NCBI GenBank assembly: GCA_964421615.1
Contig: CAYQXW010000001.1
Location: forward strand, 1-27,114
Direction of reading: 5' to 3'
DNA: 27,114 nt
Source of the DNA: an uncultured Planctomycetales bacterium
GTDB taxonomy: Bacteria > Omnitrophota > Gorgyraeia > Gygaellales > Profunditerraquicolaceae
The notes under the pieces are model-generated. The model searched no databases. It had not been told where the DNA came from and was given only the letters and a program-made list of their open reading frames with translations. Below are positions 1 through 27,114 of this stretch, piece by piece (positions within the stretch are counted from its first letter, which is position 1; each line of letters opens with the position of its first letter). Made by a program: the position numbers and the translations under genes.

Positions 1-41
1 GGAGATGGGTAAGAAGAAAGTAAACTAAGAAATTTCGTAAT

Positions 42-1298: not shown

Positions 1299-1299
1299 C

Positions 1300-1578
1300 A
1301 TGACTCCGTTAGCTAAAAAAGTTTATAAAGTTATTTCGACAATTCCAATAGGGCAGACGCGTAGTTACAAATGGGTAGCTCAACAAGTTGGGAGTCCACG
1401 AGCTTTTCAGGCAATCGGACAAATTTTAAAGCGAAATCCATATCCTATAATTATTCCTTGCCATCGCGTAGTAAAAAGCGATAATAGTTTGGGTGGATAT
1501 GTGTTTGGTCAAAGCAAAAAGAAAGAGTTATTAGATTTAGAAAAGGATATATGCATAAGTCTGGGGAACAAAGAATAA
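1300..1578 (+). CDS. ogt: Single-domain MGMT-family methylated-DNA--protein-cysteine methyltransferase (92 aa)
   Basis: IPIGQTRSYKWVAQQVGSPRAFQAIG helix-turn-helix and NPYPIIIPCHRVV active-site motif. ATG at 1300 lies 1 nt after the uvrC stop, so it is preferred over the track's 1231 start. Confidence 0.9.
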   Translation: MTPLAKKVYKVISTIPIGQTRSYKWVAQQVGSPRAFQAIGQILKRNPYPIIIPCHRVVKSDNSLGGYVFGQSKKKELLDLEKDICISLGNKE

Positions 1579-2483: not shown

Positions 2484-2486
2484 AAT

Positions 2487-3980: not shown

Positions 3981-4004
3981 TATTTGCAAACTAGGAGGAT
4001 TCAA

Positions 4005-6197: not shown

Positions 6198-6199
6198 AT

Positions 6200-11783: not shown

Positions 11784-11796
11784 TTTAGGGGTTTAA

Positions 11797-12678
11797 TTAT
11801 TGATTCAGTGGTTCAATATGAATTACTACGTCAGTTACTCCATCAATCTTTTTTTTCAGTTCTTCTTCAATTTGATTGCTAATTTGGTGAGCTTGTTCTA
11901 TATGCATTGAGGGGTTTACTTGTATATGCAGATCAATATGAATATCATCACTACGTCCACGGGTTCTGATTTTGTGGCAGGATTTCACGCCTTTAACAGA
12001 TAATACAACTTCTGAAATTTTATTTTCGTCGGATATAACTGCAGAATCACATAAAACATTACAGCTTTCTTTGGCAATGCCAAAAGCAGAATAACCTATA
12101 AAAACTGAGATTACTATAGTAATAATTGGATCGACGATAGGAAATCCCATTTTAGTTAATGCTAATGCAAATATTACAGAAATTGATGTGAGAATATCCG
12201 CTTTTGTATGCAAAGAATCGGAAACTAAAATATCACTCTTTAATATTTTGCCTTTTTTGAATTCATAATTCATGACCCAGAAATTCACACCCAAAGTTAG
12301 TATCATTACGACAAAACTTAAAAAATCAACTTGTGGAACTTCACCTTTAGAAAATCTTTGAATTCCTTCTTTTGCCAAATTAAAACAAACAACTCCTAAA
12401 GAAACAGAAATTCCCAATGAAAAGAAGGTTTCGAATTTCTTATGCCCGTAAGGATGGTTTTTGTCTTTTGGTTGAGATGCAAAAAAAATTCCAATTAGTC
12501 CGATAATGTTTGATGCTCCGTCTGAAAGGGAATGGAATCCATCCGCAGTCATACTTGAAAATCTAGTGGCAAGACCGTAAAATATTTTTATTAAAGCAAC
12601 TGCCCAATTTAAAATAAGAATTGTAAGAAGTATTTGCGAGATTTTTTTGTATTTATCTTGCGAAGGATTGGTTTGCAT
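11797..12678 (-). CDS. Cation diffusion facilitator (CDF) family metal transporter
   Basis: TM2 HSLSD and TM5 HTKAD metal-site motifs, HPYGHKKFE, and a C-terminal dimerisation domain (IRTRG...DLHIQV...IHIEP). Confidence 0.92.
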   Translation of the reverse strand: MQTNPSQDKYKKISQILLTILILNWAVALIKIFYGLATRFSSMTADGFHSLSDGASNIIGLIGIFFASQPKDKNHPYGHKKFETFFSLGISVSLGVVCFNLAKEGIQRFSKGEVPQVDFLSFVVMILTLGVNFWVMNYEFKKGKILKSDILVSDSLHTKADILTSISVIFALALTKMGFPIVDPIITIVISVFIGYSAFGIAKESCNVLCDSAVISDENKISEVVLSVKGVKSCHKIRTRGRSDDIHIDLHIQVNPSMHIEQAHQISNQIEEELKKKIDGVTDVVIHIEPLNQ

Positions 12679-12684
12679 AAATCA

Positions 12685-12713
12685 ATTATAGGATTTAATT
12701 TAAAAAAATGCAA
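12685..12713 (-). promoter_or_regulatory. Sigma70-type promoter for the CDF gene, probably leaderless
   Basis: On the - strand: TTGCAT (12713-12708), 17-nt spacer, TATAAT (12690-12685). The ATG at 12678 starts 7 nt after the -10 hexamer. Confidence 0.65.
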
Positions 12714-12726
12714 TTAATTTTTACTC

Positions 12727-12755
12727 TCGATTGTTTTATAAGAAAGTGATATAAT
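12727..12755 (+). promoter_or_regulatory. Putative distal glgC promoter (extended -10)
   Basis: TCGATT (12727-12732), 17 nt, TATAAT (12750-12755), preceded by TG at 12747-12748. Confidence 0.45.
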
Positions 12756-12770
12756 GTTTCATTGAAGGTC

Positions 12771-12799
12771 TTGACTATCATTAATAAAAAATATAATAT
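12771..12799 (+). promoter_or_regulatory. Putative proximal glgC promoter
   Basis: TTGACT (12771-12776), 17 nt, TAATAT (12794-12799). An overlapping TATAAT lies at 12792-12797 and an AGGGAG RBS at 12818-12823. Confidence 0.5.
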
Positions 12800-12829
12800 A
12801 GACGCAATAATTTTAATAGGGAGTTTATT

Positions 12830-14089
12830 ATGAAAGATGTTTTAAGTGTTATTTTGGGTGGAGGTAGAGGTACTCGGCTTTATCCTTTAACTAAATATAG
12901 AGCTAAACCGGCAGTGCCGTTAGTAGGAAAATATCGGCTTATAGATATACCTATTAGTAATTGTTTGAATTCTGGAATACATAAGATTTTTATTCTTACG
13001 CAATTTAATTCTGGTTCTTTAAATAAACATATTTTTCGAGGGTATAAACTAGATGCTTTCTCCGGCGGGTTTGTAGAAATCATTGCCGCTGAACAATCTA
13101 ATGAGCAAGGTGAATGGTTTCAAGGATCTGCTGATGCTGTGAGAAAATGTTTGAAGCATTTTAATGATTCGAGAATAAATCATATTTTGATTTTATCAGG
13201 AGATCAATTGTACCGTATGAATTTTGAAGAACTTTTTAAATTTCATATGAGTAAAAAAGCAGAAATTACTATTGCTTGCAATACTGTTAGCGCAGAAGAA
13301 TCCAGTGAACTAGGGATTATTGGTATTAATAAAGATTATAGAATTAATAAATTTGTGGAGAAACCTAAAGACAAAAAAGAGATAAAGGATATTGCTTTGA
13401 AAGTTGACGGGAAAGAAAGATATCTTGCGTCTATGGGGATTTATTTATTTAATAAAGATGTTTTGTTTAATTTATTAAGAAGCAATAATAAAACTGATTT
13501 TGGAAAAGAAGTTATTCCGGAAGCTTTGGCAGCGAATAAAATTAAGATGAGTGCTTTTGTGCATAAAAGTTATTGGAAAGATATTGGATCAATACGGTCT
13601 TTTTATGAGGAGAATTTAGCTTTTTTGAGTGATAATCCGCCGTTGGACTTATACGATGAAGATTGGCAGTTTTTTACAAGACCAAGATTTTTGCCTTTAA
13701 GTAAAATCAGTAATAGTTTTATTCAGCGTTCCGATATAGGTGAAGGTGCGATTATTGAAGATTCTAAAATCAATCATTCAATTATTGGGTTACGCAGTAA
13801 AATAGGATCCGGTACACAAATAGATGATTCAATTGTTATGGGTAATGATTTTTATGAGGAGAATGTTATTAGGAGAGTTAATGCTCCGAGGAAACCTATT
13901 TCTTTAGGTATCGGTAAGAATTGCGTTATCAAAAAAGCAATTGTTGATAAAAATGTGAGAATGGGCGATAATGTAAAACTTATAAATAAGAAAAATGTAC
14001 AAGATTTTGAGAATGAATTTTGTGTTATTAAAAACGGGATTATTATTATTCCTAAGCATACGACTATCCCATCTAATTTTGTAATATAA
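12830..14089 (+). CDS. glgC: Glucose-1-phosphate adenylyltransferase (ADP-glucose pyrophosphorylase)
   Basis: GGGRGTRLYPLT...KPAVPL.GKYRLIDIPISNC, WFQGSADAVR, ILSGDQLY, FVEKP, ASMGIY, DFGKEVIP, YWKDIG, and C-terminal hexapeptide repeats. Confidence 0.96.
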   Translation: MKDVLSVILGGGRGTRLYPLTKYRAKPAVPLVGKYRLIDIPISNCLNSGIHKIFILTQFNSGSLNKHIFRGYKLDAFSGGFVEIIAAEQSNEQGEWFQGSADAVRKCLKHFNDSRINHILILSGDQLYRMNFEELFKFHMSKKAEITIACNTVSAEESSELGIIGINKDYRINKFVEKPKDKKEIKDIALKVDGKERYLASMGIYLFNKDVLFNLLRSNNKTDFGKEVIPEALAANKIKMSAFVHKSYWKDIGSIRSFYEENLAFLSDNPPLDLYDEDWQFFTRPRFLPLSKISNSFIQRSDIGEGAIIEDSKINHSIIGLRSKIGSGTQIDDSIVMGNDFYEENVIRRVNAPRKPISLGIGKNCVIKKAIVDKNVRMGDNVKLINKKNVQDFENEFCVIKNGIIIIPKHTTIPSNFVI

Positions 14090-14099
14090 AGGAGCTGTC

Positions 14100-14582
14100 G
14101 TGGAGATAAAAATAGTTAAAATAAAAAAAACTGATGAGCTTAATATTATAATCGGGCAGAGTCATTTTATTAAGACAGTTGAAGATTTATATGAAGTTAT
14201 TGTGAGTAGTGTGCCGGGGATCAAGTTTGGAGTAGCTTTTGTTGAAGCTTCTGGATCTTGTAAAATCAGAGTGGAAGGCACTGATGAAGAGTTGAAAAAA
14301 CTTGCGGCAGAGAATGCTTTAGAAATAGGGGCGGGGCATACTTTTATAATAATTTTAGGTAACGCCTATCCGATTAATATTCTAAATGCGGTTAAAAATG
14401 TTCCGGAAGTTTGCCATATTTATTGTGCTTCTGCTAATCCCGTGGAAGTTTTGATTGTTGAGTCTGAGCAGGGACGCGGTATTATTGGTGTAATTGATGG
14501 AGCAAAGCCAAAAGGTGTTGAAAATAAAGATGATATCGAATGGCGTAAAGGGTTGTTGAGAAAAATTTCTTATAAACTTTAA
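14100..14582 (+). CDS. Adenosine-specific kinase family protein (DUF355)
   Basis: NIIIGQSHFIKTVEDLYE, FGVAFVEASG, GAGHTF, YPINILN, ASANPVEV, GRGIIGVIDG. GTG start after an AAGGAG RBS. Confidence 0.85.
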   Translation: MEIKIVKIKKTDELNIIIGQSHFIKTVEDLYEVIVSSVPGIKFGVAFVEASGSCKIRVEGTDEELKKLAAENALEIGAGHTFIIILGNAYPINILNAVKNVPEVCHIYCASANPVEVLIVESEQGRGIIGVIDGAKPKGVENKDDIEWRKGLLRKISYKL

Positions 14583-14594
14583 AAACTAAAAATA

Positions 14595-15509
14595 ATGGAC
14601 TTTAAAAAAATTCGTAAAACTTTTATTTATTCTTTGGGAAGAATTGCTTTAACTGTTTGTCTTAATCTTGTGAAAATAATCCCTTTTAAATTTCTTTTTA
14701 CTTTTGCTAATGTTATGGGGACGCTGGGTTTTTATATTGCTTCTAAACAGAGAAAAATTGCATTGGAAAGTTTAAATTTTGCTTTTTCAAAAGAAAAGAG
14801 CAAAAAGGAAATAGTGAATATTGCGAAAAATTGTTTTATAAGTATGGCAAAGTCTGGAGTAGAAATAGCTATTTATATGAATAATAAGCAGCTTATATCT
14901 GAAAAAGTAAGATTTGTAAATAAAGAGAGATTAGATAATGCTTTGGCAAAAGGCAAAGGTGTTATTCTTGTAAGTGCTCATTTTGGCAATTTTCCGTTGA
15001 TGATTGGAAGATTAAGTCAGGCTGGATATAAAGTGGGTGCGATTATGCGTCCAATGAAAGATGCTAAAGTAGAAGAGATGTTTGAGTCAGAAAGAAGGAA
15101 AATGGGAATTAAAGCTATTTATAGCATTCCTAGGAATACTTGTGTTAATAATACTATTCAAAGTTTGCGTAATAATGAGATTGTTTTTTTACCGCTGGAC
15201 CAGAATTTTGGTACAGGCGGAGTTTTTGTGAATTTTTTTGGTAAAAAAGCTGCTACTGCAACTGGGCCGGTGATTTTTGCTCAACGTACTGATGCAGTTT
15301 TGTTGCCAGTTTTTATAGTAAGGCAAAAAGACAATACTCATGAAATTGTTTTTGATGTTCCGTTAGAATTATTAAAAGGCAATGATGAAAATGATGCTAT
15401 TGTTAAGAATGTTCAGCAGATTACTGATATTATAGAATTATATGTGCGTAAATATCCTGGTGAGTGGGGATGGATTCATAAGAGATGGAAAGCACAGGAA
15501 AAAAGATAA
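14595..15509 (+). CDS. LpxL/HtrB-family (lipid A lauroyl/lysophospholipid) acyltransferase
   Basis: N-terminal membrane anchor, SAHFGN, LPLDQ, FVNFFGK, ATGP, and the YPGEWGWIHKRWK C-terminal signature. Confidence 0.85.
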   Translation: MDFKKIRKTFIYSLGRIALTVCLNLVKIIPFKFLFTFANVMGTLGFYIASKQRKIALESLNFAFSKEKSKKEIVNIAKNCFISMAKSGVEIAIYMNNKQLISEKVRFVNKERLDNALAKGKGVILVSAHFGNFPLMIGRLSQAGYKVGAIMRPMKDAKVEEMFESERRKMGIKAIYSIPRNTCVNNTIQSLRNNEIVFLPLDQNFGTGGVFVNFFGKKAATATGPVIFAQRTDAVLLPVFIVRQKDNTHEIVFDVPLELLKGNDENDAIVKNVQQITDIIELYVRKYPGEWGWIHKRWKAQEKR

Positions 15510-15525
15510 AGTTCGAGGAGGAAAT

Positions 15526-15720
15526 ATGGCTGTAAAAGAAGATAAAGCAAAGAAAAATATTTCTGCAGCAATTAAGGTTTTGATTGGTATGGTTTTTTTA
15601 GGATTAGGTGTTTTTTCGATTATAAAATGGTGGAGTTTTGTAGTAGCTTTATTTAAAGGTAGCTGTGGTTTGTTTTTTATTTTAGCAGGTATCATTTTAT
15701 TAGCAATTGCAAAAGAATAA
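15526..15720 (+). CDS. Small two-TM membrane protein (64 aa), function unknown
   Basis: Strong GAGGAGG RBS at 15515-15521 before ATG 15526. Two hydrophobic helices and host-like codon usage. Confidence 0.75.
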   Translation: MAVKEDKAKKNISAAIKVLIGMVFLGLGVFSIIKWWSFVVALFKGSCGLFFILAGIILLAIAKE

Positions 15721-15739
15721 ATTAATATATAGCAAATAC

Positions 15740-15767
15740 TTTACTATTTCTGAAAAAAAGTTATAAT
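15740..15767 (+). promoter_or_regulatory. Putative sigma70 promoter for bioY
   Basis: TTTACT (15740-15745), 16 nt, TATAAT (15762-15767). Confidence 0.45.
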
Positions 15768-15802
15768 ATATTGCATTATAAAAAATGATCAAGGAGAGAA
15801 AT

Positions 15803-16372
15803 ATGGAATTGTTGTTTTCAAAAAAGGCTGTAAACAGTAAAGCTTTAAATAGTTGTGCTGTTTTTGTTTGTTTTGTTTTATTAATTAGTTTATCTGGTTT
15901 TTTAAGAATTCCTTTAGCTTTTAGCCCGGTTCCAATTACTTTGCAGACAGTTTTTGTTTTGTTAAGTGCGGCTTTGTTGACTGGATATTCAGGGTTGGGA
16001 GTTCAAATGAGTTATATTTCTTTAGGATTATTAGGATTGCCTGTTTTTAGTTTAGCTATTGGCGCAGTTGCTTATTTAGCTGGTCCTACAGGTGGATATA
16101 TAATGGGTTTTGTTTTGGCATCATTATTTTTAGCTAAAATGCAAAAATATTTTAAATCTAATTTTGCGCTTTTTTCTTCTTTTGTTATTGCTGATGGGAT
16201 TATTCTTTTGAGCGGTATGTTGTGGTTAAAGATCCTTTTAGGATTGTCAATGGGAAAAGCTTTTGTAATGGGAGTTGTTCCTTTTATCCCAGGAGATTTA
16301 TTGAAAATAATTTTGGCAGTATCTTTATATAAAGCTTTAAAACCTAAGTATGAATTATATTGCAAAAAATAG
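15803..16372 (+). CDS. bioY: Biotin transporter BioY (ECF S-component)
   Basis: IPLAFSPVPITLQT, YISLGLLGLPVF, GPTGGYIMGF, PFIPGDLLK. ATG 15803 follows an AAGGAG RBS at 15791-15796; the track start at 15785 is an alternative. Confidence 0.92.
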   Translation: MELLFSKKAVNSKALNSCAVFVCFVLLISLSGFLRIPLAFSPVPITLQTVFVLLSAALLTGYSGLGVQMSYISLGLLGLPVFSLAIGAVAYLAGPTGGYIMGFVLASLFLAKMQKYFKSNFALFSSFVIADGIILLSGMLWLKILLGLSMGKAFVMGVVPFIPGDLLKIILAVSLYKALKPKYELYCKK

Positions 16373-16392
16373 TTTCGAAAAAGCAATTTAAA

Positions 16393-16421
16393 TTGACAGA
16401 AATATTTAGTCGTGTTAAGCT
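16393..16421 (+). promoter_or_regulatory. Sigma70 promoter with extended -10
   Basis: TTGACA (16393-16398), 17 nt, TAAGCT (16416-16421), with TG at 16413-16414. Confidence 0.65.
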
Positions 16422-16441
16422 TAAATTCAAGGAGGTGTCAA

Positions 16442-16933
16442 ATGAACAAGAGGTCAGTAATGGTGGTTGGCTTAGTCGTTTCATTTCTTCTTTTAAGTGG
16501 TAGCTTTATTTTTGCTCAGGAGAATAGTCAGGCTCCAGCAGTAAAAAATGCTAATGATGAAGTAGAATGGTTGTGGGGAGAAGTTGTTTCTTTAAATGGT
16601 GCTGAAAAAAGTTTTTTAGTGAAATATGTAGATTATGATTCAGATACCGAAAAAGAAATGGCTATTTATACAGACGATAAAACTGTATTTGAAAATGTTA
16701 AAGATTTAAATGAAATCAAGACTCAAGATACAGTGAGTGTCGATTATCTGATGAATTCTGATAAAGCTTTTGCTAAAAGTATTAGCGTGGTAAAAGTAGA
16801 AGAATTAACTGATGCTGAACCTCAGGCACCTGTAAATGCAAATACGAATATTACTGAACAACCTGTTGTAGAAAAAGCTAAAGAAGCAGCTCCAGAAGCA
16901 GCAGTTGTTCCAGCAGTTCCAGAAACAAAGTAA
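16442..16933 (+). CDS. Secreted/periplasmic hypothetical protein with a small beta-rich (OB-fold-like) domain and an acidic Pro/Ala/Glu tail
   Basis: AAGGAGG RBS at 16429-16435. Signal peptide MNKR...SFIFA|Q, then WGEVVSL...FLVKY...IYTDDKTVF...EIKTQDTVSVDY and a low-complexity C-terminus. Confidence 0.75.
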   Translation: MNKRSVMVVGLVVSFLLLSGSFIFAQENSQAPAVKNANDEVEWLWGEVVSLNGAEKSFLVKYVDYDSDTEKEMAIYTDDKTVFENVKDLNEIKTQDTVSVDYLMNSDKAFAKSISVVKVEELTDAEPQAPVNANTNITEQPVVEKAKEAAPEAAVVPAVPETK

Positions 16934-16946
16934 TAAATATAAAAAT

Positions 16947-16974
16947 AAAGGCAGGATTACAATCCTGCCTTTTT
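16947..16974 (+). terminator. Rho-independent terminator
   Basis: AAAGGCAGGAT-TACA-ATCCTGCCTTT perfect 11-bp stem followed by a T run, 13 nt after the stop codon. Confidence 0.85.
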
Positions 16975-16997
16975 AAATTTTAAGTAATTATTAAATA

Positions 16998-17651
16998 ATG
17001 AAAAATAAAAAACTTGAAAATATAAAATTAGTTATTTTTGATTTAGATGGTACGTTAATTAATGCATATCCAGCTATTTATGAAAGTTTTAATTTTGTGA
17101 TGCGTAAATTTAAATTAAAGCTTCAGAATCATTTAGTGATTAAAAGAGCAGTTGGTGGTGGGGATAGAAAATTACTTGAACCTTTTGTTGGACAATGTGA
17201 TGTGGATAAAGTTTTAAATGAATATCGAAAACATCATAAACACAGTTTAGTGCAAAAAAGCAAGTTGTTCCCTAAAGTAGAAGAATTGCTGAAATATTTA
17301 AAAAATAAAGGTTTGAAAATTGCGGTAGCGAGTAATCGTCCAACAAAATTTTCAAAAATTTTAATAAAACATTTAGGGATCGAAAAATATTTTGATATGG
17401 TTTTATGTGGTGATAAAGTAAAGAATATGAAACCTCATCCGGAAATTATTAAGAATATTATGTGTAAATTTAAGATAAAACCTATTGAAACTGTTTATGT
17501 TGGAGATATGGTTATTGATGTTTTAGCTGGAAATAGAGCTAAAGTTAATATGATAGCGGTTAATACTGGATCCAGTACAACAGAAGAGTTAATGGCAAAA
17601 AAACCGAAAATGTTATTAAAGAATGTTTGTTTATTAAGTAAATTTGTATAA
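16998..17651 (+). CDS. HAD-superfamily subfamily IA hydrolase (phosphoglycolate phosphatase-like)
   Basis: Motif I FDLDGTL, motif II VASN, motif III KPHP, motif IV YVGDMVIDV. Confidence 0.88.
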   Translation: MKNKKLENIKLVIFDLDGTLINAYPAIYESFNFVMRKFKLKLQNHLVIKRAVGGGDRKLLEPFVGQCDVDKVLNEYRKHHKHSLVQKSKLFPKVEELLKYLKNKGLKIAVASNRPTKFSKILIKHLGIEKYFDMVLCGDKVKNMKPHPEIIKNIMCKFKIKPIETVYVGDMVIDVLAGNRAKVNMIAVNTGSSTTEELMAKKPKMLLKNVCLLSKFV

Positions 17652-17675
17652 TCTGCTTAAAAATTCCAAATAAGC

Positions 17676-17703
17676 TTGACATAGTAAGTCTTTTTTCTAT
17701 AAT
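17676..17703 (+). promoter_or_regulatory. Consensus sigma70 promoter
   Basis: TTGACA (17676-17681), 16 nt, TATAAT (17698-17703). Confidence 0.7.
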
Positions 17704-17726
17704 AAGTATATAACTTATAATAATTT

Positions 17727-18386
17727 ATGATTAAATTAATAAATATAATAGTCTTTTTTATGTTTTTTGCGTCTCCTGTTTTTGCTCAAACAGTTACGCA
17801 GCCGGAAAAAATAATAATTTTTATTACGGAACAGAGTATTGATAATAGTAAATTTTCTTGGTGGATTAATGAAATGGATTATTCTGTAAGCGAAAAAGAG
17901 ATTGCTAATAAGCTGGAGGCAACAGGTTTTCAGGTTATAAATCCTGTGAGTTTATTAGATTTATTGAAGAACGAAAAAGTATTTAAGCCACGCAATGGAA
18001 CTGATGCGAGTTTTTTAAAATTGGCGAGTAAGTCTGGTGCGAATTTAGCAATTATTGGACAATCCATTGTATCTTTAAGTAAATCTGGGTCTAATGCTGA
18101 TACTCGTACTTGTTTTGCAAATGTTACAGGCAAAATAATTAATGTTGATAACGGTCAAGTTATTGGGTTTATAGAATCTTCGTCTAGCGCTTTAAATGTA
18201 GATATTGTTTTGGCGAGTAAGGATTCTTTGTTTAAGGCTATAGATGTTTTTAATTCCAGGATAATAGATAAGTTGAAAAGTGTATTTAAGAAGGAAGAAA
18301 GAGCAGAAGATAAAAACAATAATGAACCCAATTTAAGTGGCGATGTAATCGTTGGTAATATTACTGGGAATGTAACTAAGATATGA
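17727..18386 (+). CDS. Secreted hypothetical protein, probable CsgG/FlgT/TolB-N-like alpha/beta domain
   Basis: Signal peptide (...ASPVFA|Q). The pattern IANKLEATGFQVIN...ASKSGANLAIIGQ...ANVTGKIINVDNGQVIG is typical of that fold class; the fold assignment is inference. Confidence 0.6.
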   Translation: MIKLINIIVFFMFFASPVFAQTVTQPEKIIIFITEQSIDNSKFSWWINEMDYSVSEKEIANKLEATGFQVINPVSLLDLLKNEKVFKPRNGTDASFLKLASKSGANLAIIGQSIVSLSKSGSNADTRTCFANVTGKIINVDNGQVIGFIESSSSALNVDIVLASKDSLFKAIDVFNSRIIDKLKSVFKKEERAEDKNNNEPNLSGDVIVGNITGNVTKI

Positions 18387-19063
18387 TTAAAAATGTGCTT
18401 AAGTTATTGTTAATAATTTTTTTTATTGGTGGATGTGCAACTGTTCCTAAAAATGCAGCTATTGTTGATAAATCTCAAGATAAATCATTATTGCCTGTAT
18501 ATTCTGGTTTAAAATCACGGATTACTATAGCTGATTTTGAACTTAAAGCTGCTAAAGCTTCTAGTGATATAGGATTTGGATTACGAGAGATGTTAGTTAA
18601 TTTATTAATCAATAGTAATAAATTTTCTATTATTGAAAGACAGAATTTAGTAGGTAATGGTAATAAAGATAAAGTTGAAACTGCAGATTTAATTGTTTCT
18701 GCCAGTGTTGTTGAATTTGAACCTCAAGCTTCAGGTGGTAGCGCTGGAGTTGGAGGTGGTGGTGGAGTCAATAGTGGATTATTAGGTGGGTTGTTGGGTG
18801 CGTCTTTAAGTAAAGCGCATATGACTTTAGAGATAAAAATTGCAGATGCGGTTACATCTGAAATTGTTGCGACGACAAGTATTTCTGGTCGAGCTACGGA
18901 TATGAATGGTGATATTATGGGGGGAGTTATTACTAATTGGAAGTTAGGATCAGGGTTAGATGTTTTTGCTAATTCTCCTATGGAAAAAGCGATCAGAATT
19001 TGTATAATTGAATCAATGAGATATGTTACGCAGAATATTCCGTTAAAATATTACAAATACTAA
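18383..19063 (+). CDS. CsgG/HfaB-family lipoprotein
   Basis: Lipobox IGG|C, RITIADFE, GLREML...NSNKFSIIERQNL, ADLIVSASVVEFE, a Gly-rich hairpin, LEIKIADAVTSEIV, SPMEKAIR. Overlaps the upstream gene by ATGA. Confidence 0.8.
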   Translation: MIKNVLKLLLIIFFIGGCATVPKNAAIVDKSQDKSLLPVYSGLKSRITIADFELKAAKASSDIGFGLREMLVNLLINSNKFSIIERQNLVGNGNKDKVETADLIVSASVVEFEPQASGGSAGVGGGGGVNSGLLGGLLGASLSKAHMTLEIKIADAVTSEIVATTSISGRATDMNGDIMGGVITNWKLGSGLDVFANSPMEKAIRICIIESMRYVTQNIPLKYYKY

Positions 19064-19080
19064 AAGAAAGAGGTAGGAAA

Positions 19081-19161
19081 ATGGGAAAGAGAAAACGTAG
19101 AGGAAAATTGAACTGGCGTTCTAAAAAAGCAAATAAGGGAAGAAAACCTAATTTAGGATAA
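19081..19161 (+). CDS. 26-aa highly basic peptide MGKRKRRGKLNWRSKKANKGRKPNLG, bL37-like small ribosomal protein candidate
   Basis: GAGGT/AGGA RBS at 19070-19078, ATG 19081, TAA 19159-19161. The SKKANKGRKPN end resembles the SKANHGKRPN end of actinobacterial bL37 as I recall it. Not in the ORF track. Confidence 0.7.
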   Translation: MGKRKRRGKLNWRSKKANKGRKPNLG

Positions 19162-19185
19162 TATTCACGTCAGAAAATAATTTAG

Positions 19186-19233
19186 AGGAAGTCTTAATTA
19201 GGGGTATCCCTTTTTAAGATTTCCTTTATTTTT
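19186..19233 (+). terminator. Long hairpin (terminator-like, or an operator) between the peptide gene and feoA
   Basis: AGGAAGTCTTAA (19186-19197) pairs with TTAAGATTTCCT (19214-19225, one G-U), plus an inner AGGG/CCCT stem with a GTAT loop, followed by TTATTTTT. Confidence 0.55.
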
Positions 19234-19245
19234 ATATTGTAGCCT

Positions 19246-19479
19246 ATGAGAAAATTAAGCTTAGCAGAAATTAAACCTAAACTAAAAGCGCGTATTGTTG
19301 AAATAAATCTTTCAAAAAATTTACAGGATAAACTGATGAGTATGGGAATTTATCCTGGCAAAGAGGTAGTCAAAATTAGCCAGTTTTTAATGCGTGGTCC
19401 TATTGCTTTAAGAGTTTCGAGGACAGTTTTAGCTTTAGGATATAGCACTGCTAGTAAAATAATTTTAGAGGTAGAATGA
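19246..19479 (+). CDS. feoA: Ferrous iron transport protein A
   Basis: 77-aa SH3-like pattern KLMSMGIYPGKEV...RGPIALRV...LALG, directly upstream of and overlapping feoB. Confidence 0.9.
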   Translation: MRKLSLAEIKPKLKARIVEINLSKNLQDKLMSMGIYPGKEVVKISQFLMRGPIALRVSRTVLALGYSTASKIILEVE

Positions 19480-21203
19480 TTAAGAAGATTTATTTAGTCG
19501 GTAATCCTAATGTCGGAAAAAGCCTTGTTTTTTCGCGATTAACTGGCGTTCATACTGTTGTGTCTAATTTTGCAGGGACTACTCTTGAAGTAACGAAAGA
19601 TTTGATTGAATATGAATCTGCAAAAATTGAAATTTTAGATTTGCCTGGTATTTATTCTTTAGAAGGGGAATCTAAAGCGGATGAATTGGTGTCGCAAGTT
19701 TTAGCTAAAGAAAATAAAGATGAAGTTGTAATTTTTAATGTTATTGATTCTACTAATTTGGAAAGAAATCTTTATTTGACTTTACAGCTTTTAGAGCAAG
19801 GTTTTTCTTTAGTTTTATGTTTGAATATGTGTGATGAAATGAAGCATCGCGGTATTCAGATTGATATTGAAAAAATGCAGGAGATTTTAGATGTTCCGGT
19901 TGTTTTTACTTGTGCGGTTACAGGCAACGGTATAAAAAATATTATAGATAAAATTAAGCAAGCTAAAAAAAAGGAAGTTGTTTCTAGAACTCATGAACAG
20001 CGTTGGGTAGAAATAGGAAAAATTGTAGAGTCAGTTCAGAAATTAACACATAAACATCATAGTTTTAGAGAAGTTTTAGAGGATATTTCAATTAATCCAT
20101 ATACTGGCTTTTTAGTTGCAGGTGTTGTTTTGTTTTCTTCTTTTAAAGTAATCACTTTGTTCGCGAAGTTTTTAATCGAAAAAATTTTTGATCCTTTATT
20201 TTTTGATTTTTATCAGCCTGTATTAGTTAATTTAAGTAATTATTTAGGCGGAGATGGTTTTTGGCACCATTTATTTATAGGGGATTTAATTAACGGTAAA
20301 ATAGATTTTGAACAATCTATGGGTGTGTTAACGACTGCTCCTTATATAGAAATCGCAATGGTTTTGCCATATATTATATCTTTCTATATGGTTTTGAGTT
20401 TGTTGGAAGATATTGGGTTTTTACCGCGGTTTGCATTGCTTTTAGACAATATTTTTCATAAACTTGGACTTCATGGTTATGCGATTATTCCTATCCTTTT
20501 AGGGTTTGGGTGTAATGTTCCTGGTATTATCTCAACACGTATGCTTGAATCTAAGCGCGAAAGATTTATTGTATCTGTGTTAATTTCTATAGGCGTACCG
20601 TGTGTTACTTTACAAGCGATGATTTTAGGACTACTCGGGAAAATTTCCGGATTTTATGTTGCTGGTGTTTATGGAGTTTTATTTTTTTTATGGTTAGTAT
20701 TAGGGTTTTTCTTGAATAAAATAATGAAGGGTGATAGTCCAGAATTGTTGATAGAGATCCCTTCATACAAATTTCCTCCAGTATGGTTATTGCTGAAAAA
20801 GATTTTTAGTCGAATTTTTGGTTTTTTGCTGGAAGCTTTTCCTTTAGTTCTATTGGGAGTTTTATTTGTAAATATCCTATTTTATTTTAATCTATTAAAT
20901 GCTGTTACAAATATTTTTTCTCCTGTTATTCAAGGTTTATTTGGTTTACCAAAAGAATCTGTTATCGCTTTAGTTATGGGGTTATTAAGAAAAGATGTTG
21001 CAGTGGCTATGCTTGTACCGTTGCATTTGAGCGCTAAACAACTTTTTATTTCGGTTACTTTACTTGCAATATCATTTCCGTGTATCGCGACTTTTATCGT
21101 GTTGTTAAAAGAATTAGGGATTCGTTATTTTTTAAAAGCAGTTCTTTTAATGGTAGGGATAGGTATTATTGTAGGTGTTGTTCTTAATTTGGGGATAAGA
21201 TAA
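19476..21203 (+). CDS. feoB: Ferrous iron transporter B (short, 575 aa)
   Basis: G1 GNPNVGKS, G2 NFAGTT, G3 DLPGIYSL, G4 NMCD, gate motifs LEDIGFLPR, GFGCNVP and PCVT, and FPCIAT. Confidence 0.93.
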   Translation: MIKKIYLVGNPNVGKSLVFSRLTGVHTVVSNFAGTTLEVTKDLIEYESAKIEILDLPGIYSLEGESKADELVSQVLAKENKDEVVIFNVIDSTNLERNLYLTLQLLEQGFSLVLCLNMCDEMKHRGIQIDIEKMQEILDVPVVFTCAVTGNGIKNIIDKIKQAKKKEVVSRTHEQRWVEIGKIVESVQKLTHKHHSFREVLEDISINPYTGFLVAGVVLFSSFKVITLFAKFLIEKIFDPLFFDFYQPVLVNLSNYLGGDGFWHHLFIGDLINGKIDFEQSMGVLTTAPYIEIAMVLPYIISFYMVLSLLEDIGFLPRFALLLDNIFHKLGLHGYAIIPILLGFGCNVPGIISTRMLESKRERFIVSVLISIGVPCVTLQAMILGLLGKISGFYVAGVYGVLFFLWLVLGFFLNKIMKGDSPELLIEIPSYKFPPVWLLLKKIFSRIFGFLLEAFPLVLLGVLFVNILFYFNLLNAVTNIFSPVIQGLFGLPKESVIALVMGLLRKDVAVAMLVPLHLSAKQLFISVTLLAISFPCIATFIVLLKELGIRYFLKAVLLMVGIGIIVGVVLNLGIR

Positions 21204-22195
21204 TGAAAGCAATTGCGTTAATTTCCGGTGGGTTAGACAGTATTTTAGCAGCGAAAATAATTAAAGATATGAATATTGATGTTATGGGAGTTTATTTTAG
21301 AACTCCTTTTGATATGCTTGATAAGGGGGCTGTGACTAAAGAAGAGTATATCCGTAATTTGACTTCTCAACAGTCGATAGATTTTCAAGTTATAGATTTA
21401 GGGCAGGATTTTTTGGATATGGTTAAAAAACCTAAACATGGGTTTGGCGCAAATGTTAATCCGTGTATTGATTGTCGAATTTATATGTTAAAAAAAGCTA
21501 AGCAGATGATGCTGGATACAGGTGCATCTTTTTTAGTTACCGGAGAAGTTTTAGGCCAGAGGCAGATGTCTCAGCATTTAAGAACGATGTTGAAGATTGA
21601 TAAAGAAGCAGATGTTGAAGGAATAAACTTAAGGCCGCTTTGTGCAAAACATCTTGAGGAAACTATTCCAGAAAAAAATGGGTGGGTAGACAGGAATAAC
21701 TTATTTGATTTTGCGGGTAGAGGAAGAAGAAACCAGATTGATTTAGCGATTACTTTAGGGATTGTAGAATTTGCGCAGCCAGCTGGAGGTTGTTTGTTAA
21801 CTGATGTTCAGTATGCGAAAAGGTTTCGCGATCTTTTAAAGTTCGGTACATATGATTTAAATAATATTGAACTTTTGAAATACGGTAGACATTTTAAATT
21901 AGCAGATAATATTAAATTGATTGTAGGTAGGAATTTAAGAGATAATGATGCAATTACAAGATTATCTGGTTGCGGAAATTTTTTATTGGAACCTCCGGAA
22001 GAAGTTGCTGGTCCGACTGCTTTAGTAATAGGTCAGGCGCAGAAGGAAAATTTAGAGTTGGCAGCAGCGATTGTTTGTCGGTATTGTGATAAAAAAGAGT
22101 TAGTTGTGAGCTGTAAAGATTTATTGAATAACCAGAAAAGTCTTTTTAATGTTGCAGCAATTGATGATTTAAAAGCGCAAGAGTATAGAATATAA
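21203..22195 (+). CDS. ThiI-like PP-loop ATPase (putative tRNA thiolation enzyme) with a C-terminal DUF814/NFACT-R-like region
   Basis: SGGLDS PP-loop, NPCIDC, TGEVLGQR.MSQ, LRPLCAK, PAGGCLLT, GRHF...KLIVGRN. Confidence 0.8.
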   Translation: MKAIALISGGLDSILAAKIIKDMNIDVMGVYFRTPFDMLDKGAVTKEEYIRNLTSQQSIDFQVIDLGQDFLDMVKKPKHGFGANVNPCIDCRIYMLKKAKQMMLDTGASFLVTGEVLGQRQMSQHLRTMLKIDKEADVEGINLRPLCAKHLEETIPEKNGWVDRNNLFDFAGRGRRNQIDLAITLGIVEFAQPAGGCLLTDVQYAKRFRDLLKFGTYDLNNIELLKYGRHFKLADNIKLIVGRNLRDNDAITRLSGCGNFLLEPPEEVAGPTALVIGQAQKENLELAAAIVCRYCDKKELVVSCKDLLNNQKSLFNVAAIDDLKAQEYRI

Positions 22196-22215
22196 AGTAG
22201 ACTTAATTTAAAAAT

Positions 22216-23232
22216 ATGATTAAAGAAGCGTTACTTTATGAAAAACAGGAAGATAAAAAAGTTAAGTGTTTGCTTTGTGCGCATGAATGTTTGGTTGAAG
22301 TAGGCAAATTTGGATTTTGTGGTGTAAGACAGAATTTAGAAGGTAAGCTATATACGCATGTTTATGGGAATATCATTTCTTCTCATGCTGATCCGATAGA
22401 GAAAAAACCTTTGTACCATTTTTTACCTGGTTCAAAAAGTTTTTCTATTGCTTCAGTGGGTTGTAATTTTAGGTGCCATTTTTGTCAAAATTGGGAAATT
22501 TCCCAGTTGCGTAAGGATCAGCAGATAAGTTTGCCAGAAAAAGAATTTACTTGTGAACAGATTGTTGAAGAAGCAGTGAAGTATAGATGTCAGAGTATAT
22601 CTTTCACTTATACTGAACCTACAGTTTTTTTTGAGTTTGCGTTGGATGTTGCTAAACGGTCGTTTGAGCGGAAACTAGCGAATATTTTTGTGACTAATGG
22701 ATTTATGAGTGCAAAAGCTATTGAAATGATTGCCCCTTATTTAAGTGCGGCAAATATAGATCTTAAATTTTTTAAGGACGAATCTTATAAAAAAATTTGT
22801 GCAGGGAAATTGGAGCCAGTTTTAAATTCGATTCGCTTAATGAAGAAACTTGGTATTTGGGTTGAAGTTACCACGTTAGTTGTGCCAAAACAAAATGATA
22901 ATGAAAAAGAGTTGAGGAATATTGCGGAATTTATTGCTGGGGTAGATAAAAGTATTCCGTGGCATATATCTAGATTTTTTCCGAATTATAAGTATGACGA
23001 TTTAAGCGCAACAGGAGATCGGATATTAAAAATTGCTGAAAAAACCGGGCATGAATCTGGATTGAATTATGTTTATGTCGGTAATGCTTATGGTTGGAAT
23101 AATGATACAGTTTGTTCTAGTTGCAAAGAAATTCTGGTTAAAAGAAATGGTTTTACTATTTTAGAAAATAATATTGAGCAGGGTATTTGTAAATTTTGTA
23201 AAAAAGAGATACCTGGTAAATTTAATAATTGA
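22216..23232 (+). CDS. amrS: AmmeMemoRadiSam system radical SAM enzyme
   Basis: N-terminal CLLCAHEC...GFCGVR, DPIEKKPLYHFLPG, CxxxCxxC (GCNFRCHFCQNWEIS), FTYTEPT, WHISRFFP, YVYVGN, and C-terminal CxxC pairs. Confidence 0.9.
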   Translation: MIKEALLYEKQEDKKVKCLLCAHECLVEVGKFGFCGVRQNLEGKLYTHVYGNIISSHADPIEKKPLYHFLPGSKSFSIASVGCNFRCHFCQNWEISQLRKDQQISLPEKEFTCEQIVEEAVKYRCQSISFTYTEPTVFFEFALDVAKRSFERKLANIFVTNGFMSAKAIEMIAPYLSAANIDLKFFKDESYKKICAGKLEPVLNSIRLMKKLGIWVEVTTLVVPKQNDNEKELRNIAEFIAGVDKSIPWHISRFFPNYKYDDLSATGDRILKIAEKTGHESGLNYVYVGNAYGWNNDTVCSSCKEILVKRNGFTILENNIEQGICKFCKKEIPGKFNN

Positions 23233-23257
23233 TTATATTTAACTAAGAGGGGTTTAT

Positions 23258-26200
23258 ATGAAATTAGTCTGGCATCAGGAGATTAACGATGTTGAAGCAG
23301 TGTTGAATAGTAATTCTAACAGCGGGATTTCTAATGTAGAAGCAAAGGCGAGATTAGAAAAGTATGGCCCTAATGTTTTAAAAGAAGGCAAAAAAATAAC
23401 TCCGTTAGAAATATTTATTGACCAGTTTAAAGATTTTATCGTGTGGATTTTAATTGGGGCAGCATTAGTTTCAGGATTCTTAAAAGAATGGGTTGATGCG
23501 TTAGCTATAGTTGCAATTGTGGTTCTTAATGCAATTTTAGGGTTTATTCAGGAATATCGTGCAGAGAAATCATTGGCCGCTTTAAAAAAACTTTCTGCTC
23601 CAAATTCTAAAGTTATTCGCGATGGGAAAAATAAACTGATTCCATCTTCTGAAATTGTTGTTGGAGATTTAGTGGAGTTAGAAGCTGGTGATTATGTTCC
23701 AGCGGATAGCCGTTTGGTTTGGGCGAGTTCGAATTTTGCTACTTTGGAAGCAAGTTTAACTGGAGAATCAACTCCGGTTATGAAAACTTCATTAGCGTTG
23801 GAAGAAAAAGAAGTATCTTTGGCAGATAGGGCGAATATGGTTTATTTAGGAACTTCTGTCTCTAGTGGTAAATCCAGAGCTTTAGTTTTTCATACGGGAA
23901 TGAATACGGAATTAGGTAAGATTGCCGGTATGATACAAGATATTAAAACTGAAGAGACGCCGTTACAGAAAAAATTAGAAGAGTTCGGTAAAAGAATTGT
24001 AGTTATTTGTTTTATTCTTGTGGGATTAGTTTTTATTTTGGGTATTATTCGAGAAGGTATTTCTAAAGACCATCTAATTGAACTATTTTTAACTTCTGTT
24101 AGCCTTGCAGTTGCGGCTATTCCGGAAGGGTTGCCTGCAGTAGTAACTATTGCATTGGCATTAGGTGTGCAGAGAATGGTTAAACGTAATGCGTTAATCC
24201 GTAAGTTGCCTTCTGTTGAAACTCTTGGATGTGCAACAGTTATTTGTTCTGATAAAACAGGGACTTTGACTAAAAATGAAATGACTGTGCAAGCTTTGTA
24301 TACTTTAAATAATAGTTTTAAGGTTACAGGTATTGGTTATAATCCGAATGGGCAAATATTAGCTGGGGATAAAAATATTGATTTAAAAAAATATGTTGAT
24401 TTAGAAAAGTTATTAAGTTGTTCTGTTCTGTGTAATGGTGCGATGTTAGTTGTAGATAAAGATAATACTAAAATTGTTGGTGACCCTACAGAGGCAGCTT
24501 TGTTAACCGTGAGTGCTAAAGTAGATATTTGGAAAGAGAAAGAAGAAAAAAATTATGTTTTTGTAGAGGAAATTCCTTTTGATTCTGAAAGAAAGAAGAT
24601 GACTATTGTAAGAAGAGATAAAAGTGATAATATTTTTGCTTTTGTCAAAGGTGCGCCGGATATGTTGATTAATGATTGTACTAAAATATTGGATAATGGT
24701 TCTATTCGTGAATTGATTGCTCCCGATAAAGAAAAGATATTAAATAAAAATATGGAATTTGCTAATAATGCAATGCGTGTTTTAGCGATAGCATATAGAA
24801 ATATTGATAATCCTCGGGATAAATATGACGTTTGCGCAATAGAGAATAATTTAGTTTTTGTTGGGCTTGTTGCAATGATTGATCCTCCTCGAGATGAAGT
24901 TCGCGAAGCGATTAAAATTTGTAAAAGCGCAGGTATTCGTACAGTTATGATAACAGGTGATCACAAGAATACAGCCGTTGCTATTGCAAAAAGTTTAGGT
25001 TTCTTTCATCAGGAATCTTTAGCTATGACAGGAGAAGAGTTAGATAAAGTTTCTGATGATGAATTGAAAGAAAAAATTGAAAAAATTTCTGTTTATGCGC
25101 GTGTTTCTCCAGAGCATAAGTTGAGAATTGTTAAAGCTTGGCGTAAAAAGGGCCAGGTTGTGGCAATGACTGGCGATGGGGTTAATGATGCTCCAGCAGT
25201 TAAAGAGGCAGATATTGGCGTGGCTATGGGGATTACAGGAACAGATGTAACAAAAGAAGTTTCTGATATGGTTGTAACTGATGATAACTTTGCTTCCATT
25301 GTTTCTGCTGTTGAAGAGGGACGAGGAATTTATGATAATATTAAAAAGTTTATTCATTATCTTTTATCATGTAATACCGGTGAAATTTTAGTAATGTTTA
25401 GTGCTTCTTTATTTGGGTTGCCAATACCATTATTGCCTATACATATTTTGTGGGTCAATTTAGTTACTGATGGTTTACCGGCATTAGCTTTGGGAGTTGA
25501 TCCTGTTGATAAAAAAATAATGAATAGGCAGCCGAGAAAGCAGAATGAACCGGTTATAACTAAAAAGAATATGTTGTTAATGTTGATGCAGGGTGCGTTT
25601 ATTGCATTTTGCAGTTTGTTGGCGTTTTGTTTTGTGATGTATGTTGAAAAAGAAGGGTTAGCTAGAGGAAGAACAGCCGCGTTTATAGTTCTATCTTGTT
25701 CGCAGTTATTTCATTCTTTTAACTGTAGAAGCCAAGTTGAATCATTATTTAAATTAGGCGTTTTTACTAATATGAAATTAATTGCTGCAAATTTTGTTTC
25801 GTTTTCATTGCAGATGATGGTTGTTTATGTTCCGTTTTTTCAGAAAATATTTAAAACTGAAGCTTTAAGTTTGACTGATTGGTTGTTTGTTATTGCAGTT
25901 GCATCTTTGCCTTTATGGGGGATGGAGCTTTATAAAATTTTTGTTAAGACCAAAGAAGAAAATAAAATGGTCATAAGCAATAAACTTCCGGAACTCGCCA
26001 GAGTAGCTGAATTTATTGAAAGCCTGGGCGAAAAATGGGGCGTTTCGCAAAAGGCCGTCATCGACATAAACGTCTGCATGGAAGAACTGATTGTCAACAC
26101 TATATCATACGGTTATCCCGACAAAGGCCGGCACGAGATCGAAATAACCGTCACGCGCGAAGAGCGGGCCATAAAAATAAGGATCGAGGACGGCGGATGC

Positions 26201-26365
26201 GAATTCGATCCTTTAAAAGCAGCGGCGCCGGCCGACATAGATAAACCCCTCATGGAAAGAAATATCGGCGGCCTCGGGATCCATTTCGTTAAAAATCTCA
26301 TGGATGATTTCGAATACGAAAGATCCGGCGGCAAAAACATCGTGACGCTCACCAAAAACTTCTGA
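23258..26365 (+). CDS. Type IIA (Ca2+-type) cation-translocating P-type ATPase (about aa 1-897) reading in frame into an RsbW-like HATPase_c domain
   Basis: TGES, AAIPEGLP, CSDKTGTLT, KGAP, DPPR, MITGD, TGDGVNDAP, NLVTDGLPAL. The last ~138 aa form an anti-sigma/kinase-like domain with different codon usage. Confidence 0.88.
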   Translation: MKLVWHQEINDVEAVLNSNSNSGISNVEAKARLEKYGPNVLKEGKKITPLEIFIDQFKDFIVWILIGAALVSGFLKEWVDALAIVAIVVLNAILGFIQEYRAEKSLAALKKLSAPNSKVIRDGKNKLIPSSEIVVGDLVELEAGDYVPADSRLVWASSNFATLEASLTGESTPVMKTSLALEEKEVSLADRANMVYLGTSVSSGKSRALVFHTGMNTELGKIAGMIQDIKTEETPLQKKLEEFGKRIVVICFILVGLVFILGIIREGISKDHLIELFLTSVSLAVAAIPEGLPAVVTIALALGVQRMVKRNALIRKLPSVETLGCATVICSDKTGTLTKNEMTVQALYTLNNSFKVTGIGYNPNGQILAGDKNIDLKKYVDLEKLLSCSVLCNGAMLVVDKDNTKIVGDPTEAALLTVSAKVDIWKEKEEKNYVFVEEIPFDSERKKMTIVRRDKSDNIFAFVKGAPDMLINDCTKILDNGSIRELIAPDKEKILNKNMEFANNAMRVLAIAYRNIDNPRDKYDVCAIENNLVFVGLVAMIDPPRDEVREAIKICKSAGIRTVMITGDHKNTAVAIAKSLGFFHQESLAMTGEELDKVSDDELKEKIEKISVYARVSPEHKLRIVKAWRKKGQVVAMTGDGVNDAPAVKEADIGVAMGITGTDVTKEVSDMVVTDDNFASIVSAVEEGRGIYDNIKKFIHYLLSCNTGEILVMFSASLFGLPIPLLPIHILWVNLVTDGLPALALGVDPVDKKIMNRQPRKQNEPVITKKNMLLMLMQGAFIAFCSLLAFCFVMYVEKEGLARGRTAAFIVLSCSQLFHSFNCRSQVESLFKLGVFTNMKLIAANFVSFSLQMMVVYVPFFQKIFKTEALSLTDWLFVIAVASLPLWGMELYKIFVKTKEENKMVISNKLPELARVAEFIESLGEKWGVSQKAVIDINVCMEELIVNTISYGYPDKGRHEIEITVTREERAIKIRIEDGGCEFDPLKAAAPADIDKPLMERNIGGLGIHFVKNLMDDFEYERSGGKNIVTLTKNF
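25949..26365 (+). other. RsbW/anti-sigma-factor-like ATP-binding (HATPase_c) domain in the higher-GC segment
   Basis: NKLPELARV..F, N-box EELIVNTISYGY, G1 EDGGCEFDP, G2 IGGLGIHFVKNLMD, Y.R.GGKN.VTL.K. Confidence 0.85.
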
Positions 26366-26367
26366 AA

Positions 26368-27114
26368 ATGCATAAAAAATACAATGTCGAAAAAGGTCAA
26401 ATGACGGAACTTTCGCCTGAAGCCCTTCCGCTTTTAAAAAGCAGCGGCCTCTACGGCGACGACCTGCGGCCGGTAAAGATCGCGAGCCGGGGCTGGACAT
26501 ACGTCGATTTCGCGGCGCTTTGGATCAGTATGAGCATCTGCATTCCCACATACTCGCTCGCGTCCGGTTTGATAACGAGCGGAATGAATTGGTGGCAGGC
26601 TATTTTCACTATATTCGCCGGAAATTTTATAGTACTGATACCCATGGTCTTAATAGGGGCCGCGTCCACCAGATATGGAATTCCCTATCCGGTTTTCTGC
26701 CGCGCCTCATTCGGAACGAAAGGCGCGCATTTTCCGGCGATACTCCGCGCCGGCGTCGCGTGCGGATGGTTCGGCATCAACTGCTGGATCGGGGGCGAGT
26801 TCTTATATAGCGCTCTGTTCGTGACTTTTCCAATAATATCGGCCGTGCCGCACGCTAAATTCATTTCATTTCTTCTTTTCTGGGCCGTCAACGTATATCT
26901 TGCCTATAAGGGAAACGAAATGATAAGGCGGATGAATATTTTTGCCACTCCGGTTCTCACGGCCGCCGGGTTTGCGGTCATATTCTGGGCTTTATATGAA
27001 GCGGGTTCGGTCGCCTGGCTTTTTTCAGCCACTTCAAGGATAACGTCCAACGGCGCAAGCGCTTCTTTCACGGCGCTGTTTCTTCCGTCGCTCAACGCGA
27101 TGATAGCCTACTGG
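26368..27114 (+). CDS. NCS1-family nucleobase:cation symporter (cytosine/uracil/allantoin/hydantoin permease type), 3'-partial
   Basis: Open frame of 249 codons from ATG 26368 to the window end: DLRPVKIASRGW...ALWISMSICIPTY.LASGLI..GMNWWQA...YGIPYPVFCRASFG.KGA..PA.LRA.VACGWFGINCWIGG...NAMIAYW. Missing from the track because it has no stop in the window. Confidence 0.92.
   Translation, partial: MHKKYNVEKGQMTELSPEALPLLKSSGLYGDDLRPVKIASRGWTYVDFAALWISMSICIPTYSLASGLITSGMNWWQAIFTIFAGNFIVLIPMVLIGAASTRYGIPYPVFCRASFGTKGAHFPAILRAGVACGWFGINCWIGGEFLYSALFVTFPIISAVPHAKFISFLLFWAVNVYLAYKGNEMIRRMNIFATPVLTAAGFAVIFWALYEAGSVAWLFSATSRITSNGASASFTALFLPSLNAMIAYW

Follow-up and report, generated by a model that had tools for sequence, protein, structure and literature searches.

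The DNA analysed here (hereafter the window, 27,114 nt) contains an open reading frame (ORF) on the + strand, 23258-26365, whose 1035-aa product begins as a P-type ATPase and ends in a complete HATPase_c_2 domain, with an abrupt change of base composition between the two. This locus raises the question of whether such a protein exists in a cell that has acquired foreign DNA, or whether two genomes were joined during assembly. An earlier reading of the sequence alone had favoured the latter, that is, a chimeric join of two genomes (misassembly or spliced sequence), over a recent illegitimate recombination. To answer the question, we considered the composition of the two parts, the source of each, the exact position of the join, and the processes which could have produced it.

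Compositional step within the fused reading frame

Bases 1-25950 have a GC content of 32% and a C content of 11%, with a fraction of C-ending codons (C3) of 0.02-0.06 in 20 out of 20 ORFs; bases 25972-27114 have a GC content of 50%, no GC skew, and C3 values of 0.34-0.40 in both of their ORFs (0.40 and 0.34, respectively). In 500-nt windows, the left part (1 to ~25950) varies in GC between 0.25 and 0.38 and displays strongly positive GC skew (+0.2 to +0.5), whereas from ~25970 to the window end, GC is 0.49-0.50 and the skew is zero, and the C content of the bases increases from 0.11 to 0.25. C-ending codons gave a likelihood change-point at 25970 and GC one at 25987, and the step at the join amounts to 18 GC points within ~30 nt. 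Within the fused ORF, C-ending codons number 43 out of 898 in the ATPase part and 53 out of 131 beyond it (Fisher p = 7e-27). By tetranucleotide profile, the last 1143 nt lie at a distance of 0.664 from the left part (z = 13.4), compared to 0.266 +/- 0.030 (maximum 0.335) for 249 equally long windows from the left part. An extreme change at a single point, as looked for in chimeras, is thus found in both GC (0.32 to 0.50) and C3 (0.05 to 0.40).

The sharp break within the ORF, first noticed in the sequence-only reading, is therefore real. The codon counts given there (0 of 29 ending in C before the break, 7 of 29 after it) are exact, although the C-free run before the break in fact spans 31 codons (0/31), and GC does stay at about 50% through to the window end, as was stated. 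The description of the pre-break codons as T- or A-ending is correct in that none ends in C, but 9 of the 31 end in G, so that C alone is missing. Two compositional checks had been named beforehand, a tetranucleotide comparison of the sides and a GC3-type step whose absence was to count against the break; the profiles differ and the step is present.

Independently of the join, the left part is of interest for the extreme C depletion of its coding strand over 1-25950 (C 11%, C3 0.02-0.06 in all 20 ORFs measured) and for its strand bias, with 26 of 27 large ORFs on the + strand; the GC skew (+0.2 to +0.5) reverses only over the single minus-strand gene, encoding a CDF transporter (11797-12678).

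Sources of the two sides and position of the join

The following features were delineated:

1..25950, + strand: left source, Omnitrophota-like segment (composition, Pfam, relatives, 100%-identical contigs)
23258..25971, + strand: P-type (Ca2+-type) cation ATPase gene from the left source, truncated 13 nt short of the native stop (Pfam)
25951..25971, no strand assigned: junction word CAAAGAAGAAAATAAAATGGT, 21 nt, in both source genomes
25951..26365, + strand: 3′ end of a sensor gene, comprising a linker and a complete HATPase_c_2 domain (RsbW-like kinase) (Pfam, relatives)
26368..27114, + strand: NCS1 nucleobase/allantoin-type permease, N-terminal half, running off the window end (Pfam Transp_cyt_pur, 1-214/440)

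The left source encodes a set of housekeeping proteins recognizable by Pfam, namely, UvrC, RF2, SecA, Lnt, GlgC, FeoB, a radical-SAM enzyme, and the P-type ATPase. The latter contains the Cation_ATPase_N, E1-E2_ATPase, Hydrolase, and Cation_ATPase_C domains, the last of which is complete and ends at residue 895. Among the best 120 homologues, the nearest are 73-76% identical, with the named ones mostly from Candidatus Omnitrophota, and the C-termini of the homologues lie 5-20 residues past the LPLWxME motif. The earlier placement of the break where such an ATPase normally ends is accordingly right as to position, but the ATPase is incomplete there: at the join it lacks its last 4 codons and stop.

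The DNA of the window is present in several runs of one wastewater/aquatic metagenome study (2020 runs); run X1 corresponds to SRR10083294 (via a shared 1703-nt contig). The assemblies compared were Logan contigs (k = 31), and 100%-identical Logan contigs back the window path in runs X1, X2, X3, and X8. A contig of run X2 (1090 nt, depth 6.5) is a 100% match to the window up to 25971 and then continues with AGTTAATGTATAAATTAAGGAGGCAGTATG, and a 187-nt contig of run X3 is mismatch-free to 25971 and continues with the same AGTTAATGTATAAATTAAGGAGGCAGTATG. In these assemblies, the ATPase ends with ...KTKEENKMVVNV and a stop codon (…K T K E E N K M V V N V stop), which makes the native protein 908 aa long and places its end where the homologues end. 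The stop is followed by AAGGAGG (Shine-Dalgarno) and then ATG, and the alternative continuation of the left genome past the join reads …AAAATGGTAGTTAATGTATAAATTAAGGAGGCAGTATG…. The X2/X3 continuation is the native one of the left genome and is as AT-rich as the rest of it. In two Omnitrophota relatives, unrelated genes lie downstream of the ATPase gene: in one, that of a YHS/ArsP permease at a distance of 20 nt, and in the other, that of an H+-PPase. Two further positions in the window, 14949 and 22450, looked like branch points and were considered as additional misjoins; both were rejected, because window-path contigs cross them (2-3 runs) and there are no loose ends.

Several other genes of the left part merit a comment. 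The prfB gene, encoding RF2, carries the canonical programmed +1 frameshift site (5094-5170): the ATG at 5094 is followed by 24 codons and by GGGGG TAT CTT TGA C at ~5149-5165, and ORF 5139-6197 holds the body of RF2 (PCRF and RF-1 domains), shifted into the +1 frame. Although such sites are known, a plain ORF caller would mis-start the gene at a TTG. The UvrC homologue (window region 42-1578) is short, at 418 aa, with GIY-YIG, UVR, and RNase H-like endonuclease domains and no match to the HhH domain; the 3′ end of its gene overlaps by 68 nt a gene for an MGMT/Ogt-type methyltransferase DNA-binding domain (1231-1578). A frameshift in uvrC at 1231-1298 was considered and rejected, the second ORF being the separate MGMT-type gene. 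Finally, 21203-22195 encodes a PP-loop protein resembling ThiI/tRNA-methyltransferases, with an RNA-binding NFACT-R_2 domain at its C-terminus, and a gene for a radical-SAM enzyme (22216-23232) lies directly downstream.

On the right side, HATPase_c_2 (PF13581) occupies residues 907-1033 of the fused ORF (profile 2-127/127, E = 9e-26), and the permease gene starts 2 nt after the upstream stop. The same spacing is found in GTDB contig CAZJFS010000078.1, which derives from a MAG (hereafter L002) and matches the window only over 25952-27114 (82% nucleotide identity) and nowhere else; its permease, encoded by 5707-7179, is 88% identical to that of the window at the protein level. Upstream of it, ORF 3344-5704 of L002 encodes a 786-aa protein with MCP-like PDC/dCache, HAMP, SpoIIE (PP2C), and C-terminal HATPase_c_2 domains, in which the linker before HATPase_c_2 reads ...SENKEAKKMIIKNK; …ISKTVKKASENKEAKKMIIKNK…. 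Contigs from other studies agree with the window from 25951 on. A 177-nt contig of runs X6/X7 is 97.6% identical to 25951-26117, its four differences all being located from 26021 onward. Upstream of 25951, this contig has AGAGTGAAAA in place of the TTGTTAAGAC of the window. In a contig of run X9 (~82% identical), the match starts at 25951 and is preceded by …ACAAGCGAAAA. The upstream letters of X9 and X6/X7 encode SENKEENKM in frame, with no stop.

Given this open frame upstream and the sensor fusion in L002, the right part is, by sequence comparison with its nearest relatives, the 3′ end of a Cache-HAMP-SpoIIE(PP2C)-HATPase_c_2 sensor gene, the 5′ part of which is missing. The ATG at 25967 was first favoured as the start of a stand-alone RsbW gene (25967-26365), distant homologues being 127-189 aa long, but this assignment was dropped: the frame is open upstream in L002, X9, and X6/X7, and the L002 domain ends a 786-aa SpoIIE sensor, so that the ATG most likely specifies an internal Met. 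Of the hallmarks of RsbW/SpoIIAB-type anti-sigma factor kinases, 25967-26365 displays the complete HATPase_c_2 domain, but is not a separate small gene with its own start. For the kinase half, identity to the best 120 homologues reaches at most 48-54%; these proteins are 111-189 aa long, and none has an ATPase domain listed. No 100% match was found among GTDB representative genomes, and the right-hand boundary is defined by relatives (97.6%, ~82%, and 82% identical) rather than by a 100%-identical strain; for the latter, we infer an upstream sequence which would read …AG(T/C)GAAAA immediately before CAAAGAAGAAAATAAAATGGTCATAAGC…, with A rather than C at 25950, within a SpoIIE-HATPase_c_2 gene.

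Two observations on these relatives are worth recording. In L002, genes for an NMT1/THI5-like binding protein, the Cache-HAMP-SpoIIE-HATPase_c_2 sensor, and the NCS1 permease are tightly packed (2365-7179; overlapping or 2 nt apart), a layout which suggests an operon for nucleobase or thiamine-precursor uptake with its own partner-switching sensor. According to their labels, runs X6 and X7 come from different studies and biomes (wetland 2023 and soil 2024, respectively); they share identical 177-nt and 111-nt contigs, located at window positions 25951-26117 and 26536-26568, as well as depths and longest record, suggesting that they represent the same data under two accessions or have a shared source.

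The join can thus be positioned precisely. Left-specific sequence extends to base 25950 and right-specific sequence begins at base 25972; the left source fits the window to 25971 and the right source fits it from 25951, and the overlap is therefore exactly 21 nt. The word is bounded on the left by position 25950, where the window has C and all three right-side relatives have A, and on the right by position 25972, where the window has C and the left genome's own continuation has A. It occurs once in the window, encodes KEENKM(V) in a frame identical in both genes, and is free of N's and linker letters; when extended by a degenerate tail, it found no match among JGI metagenome contigs. The break had previously been placed at 25946-25950; it exists, but the join lies slightly to the right, at 25951-25971, and the ACC codon, which had been taken as the first of the new sequence, still belongs to the left genome.

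Origin of the join

The two sides also differ in taxonomic affiliation. The left side is 73-76% identical to sequences carrying Candidatus Omnitrophota names, whereas the right side is 88% identical to an unclassified MAG, followed by UBP16, ADurb.Bin243, and Wallbacteria at 55-57%. Best-hit taxonomy had been named in advance as a check of the chimeric reading, and sharing of the arrangement by relatives as evidence against an artefact; the affiliations diverge, and no relative of either side shares the arrangement. Each side continues differently elsewhere, with X2 and X3 leaving the window after 25971, and X6/X7, X9, and L002 before 25951/25952. No contig crosses 25951-25972 among the Logan contigs of eight runs (X1-X4, X6-X8, X14), that is, assemblies at k = 31 do not reproduce the join; these contigs are fragmented at 2-7x, and the missing crossing contig in X1 therefore says little by itself. 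Contig depth on the right is ~0.4-0.5x of that on the left in X1, X2, and X8, and the Logan contigs of X3 lack the right side; together with the missing crossing contigs, this depth difference is suggestive. As a measure of the independence of the two sources, abundance across samples is thus divided: the right side is absent in X3, yet the ratio is alike in X1, X2, and X8.

Collectively, these results make us highly confident that the window represents a chimera of two genomes, assembled from a metagenome at low coverage and produced by a misjoin in the de Bruijn graph at a chance identity of 21 nt. The misassembly proposed by the sequence-only reading is thereby supported by the divergence of the sides at 25972/25950, the 21-nt overlap, taxonomy, and depth. 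Inter-genome chimeric contigs are a known class of error in short-read de Bruijn assembly, sought by misassembly-detection and MAG-refinement tools, and MEGAHIT and metaSPAdes, two common metagenome assemblers, both start by default from a smallest k of 21. The shared word has the same length as this default; a k of 21 for this assembly is inferred from the overlap.

The misjoin most probably arose as follows. Two unrelated bacteria co-occur in the samples of the wastewater study: an AT-rich Omnitrophota-like organism at ~4-7x and, at ~2-4x, an organism of 50% GC whose relatives are UBP16/Wallbacteria-like MAGs. The A-rich 21-mer CAAAGAAGAAAATAAAATGGT would be shared by chance, forming part of the C-terminal tail of the ATPase in one and of the linker preceding HATPase_c_2 in the other, and both genomes would meet at its node in a graph built at k = 21. 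Because the true continuations were probably too thinly covered, the node would have seemed unbranched, and the assembler would have crossed from one genome to the other, the contig ending 1.1 kb past the join. Since both genes read the word in one and the same frame, the join removed the stop of the ATPase and gave rise to one long spurious ORF. The 1035-aa ATPase-kinase ORF is thus most likely an artefact, an in-frame by-product of the join. PF13581 is not listed for any of the best 120 homologues of the ATPase half; the fused architecture was not seen among the 240 homologues (best 120 per half) and hence does not recur as a natural ATPase-HATPase_c_2 protein would; and both the fused protein and the HATPase_c_2 protein are absent from the exact-sequence protein index.

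The foremost alternative is a real and recent illegitimate recombination, whereby a sub-population of the Omnitrophota-like organism took up DNA of the 50%-GC bacterium by microhomology at the 21 nt, yielding a genuine in-frame fusion. If so, there would be cells with a Ca2+-type P-type ATPase bearing a C-terminal RsbW-like serine kinase domain, an architecture absent among the 240 homologues. We consider this very unlikely. Short-homology recombination could in principle make use of an identity of 21 nt, but this length coincides with the default assembler k; the join is in frame, but no such fusion is found among the homologues; and although both partners are present in the same samples and the roughly constant right/left depth ratio (0.4-0.5) in X1, X2, and X8 is what a strain variant might give, the assemblies of X2 and X3 proceed unbranched into another continuation of native appearance, and no contig in eight runs backs the join. 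Furthermore, the right side is devoid of any amelioration and the signature of a mobile element is lacking: there are no tRNA genes in the whole window, repeats around the join are at chance level only, and no integrase or transposase domains were detected by Pfam among the ORFs scanned. The earlier statement that no integrase, transposase, tRNA, or flanking repeat is visible is borne out by these scans. A genomic island is thus without an integrase or transposase, a tRNA target, or flanking direct repeats here; the foreign stretch is located at the very end of the window, which terminates before any return to host sequence.

Similarly improbable is that the join was made after assembly, by scaffolding, contig merging, overlap-based de-duplication, or a deliberate in-silico splice, rather than by an error in the graph. 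In favour of this, none of the public collections queried contained the contig of the window itself. Overlap-merging tools can join on short identities too, but normally require much longer overlaps, and an arbitrary splice would not land on an exact 21-nt identity common to both sources; N's and linker letters are also absent at the join. Ordinary heterogeneity within one genome (due, for example, to an old island or to strong expression of the genes), the ORF then encoding a natural multi-domain protein, has nothing but the uninterrupted reading frame in its favour and is refuted by the composition (18 GC points in ~30 nt, z = 13.4, C3 from 0.05 to 0.40 inside one ORF), by the different continuation seen for the left genome, and by the collinearity of the right side with a different lineage.

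On the reading of the window as an assembly chimera, the apparent fusion protein and foreign island are products of assembly and carry no biological weight. In practice, the contig or bin needs to be cut back by its final 1.14 kb (25972-27114), databases and counts of new domain architectures should exclude the 1035-aa ORF, and the ATPase should be annotated as 3′-incomplete, with its true end, …KMVVNV followed by the stop, taken from other assemblies. The locus also provides a clean worked example of an in-frame k = 21 chimera which can be diagnosed without raw reads, using longer-k assemblies and the relatives of each side.

Comparison with known ATPases, sensors, and assembly chimeras

The left gene closely resembles the P-type II Ca2+-type cation ATPases of Candidatus Omnitrophota, with which it has all domains in common, as well as an identity of 73-76% across the C-terminal 403 residues and a last transmembrane segment at the equivalent position (LPLWxME motif). 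It differs from them in that the window copy lacks the last four codons and stop and reads into foreign sequence.

The right side is comparable to the Cache-HAMP-SpoIIE-HATPase_c_2 sensors, which combine RsbU/RsbW-type partner-switching in one chain and are exemplified by L002 3344-5704. Residues 904-1035 of the window ORF align over the full length of the C-terminal domain and its linker, and the same NCS1 permease follows 2 nt after the domain. In contrast to the L002 sensor, however, the window has a foreign P-type ATPase in place of the sensor, HAMP, and phosphatase domains; of the sensor gene, no more than the final ~137 codons are represented.

The window as a whole resembles known inter-genome assembly chimeras, in which co-occurring low-coverage genomes are joined via an exact word of assembler-k length; the 21-nt word here would be of that kind. 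It shares with them the abrupt shift in composition, taxonomy, and depth, the short foreign piece at the contig end, and the lack of the join in longer-k assemblies (Logan, k = 31). Unlike in the usual chimeras, the word is in frame in both genes, so that a long and plausible fusion ORF results rather than a truncated gene; this outcome is less common, but nothing essential differs.
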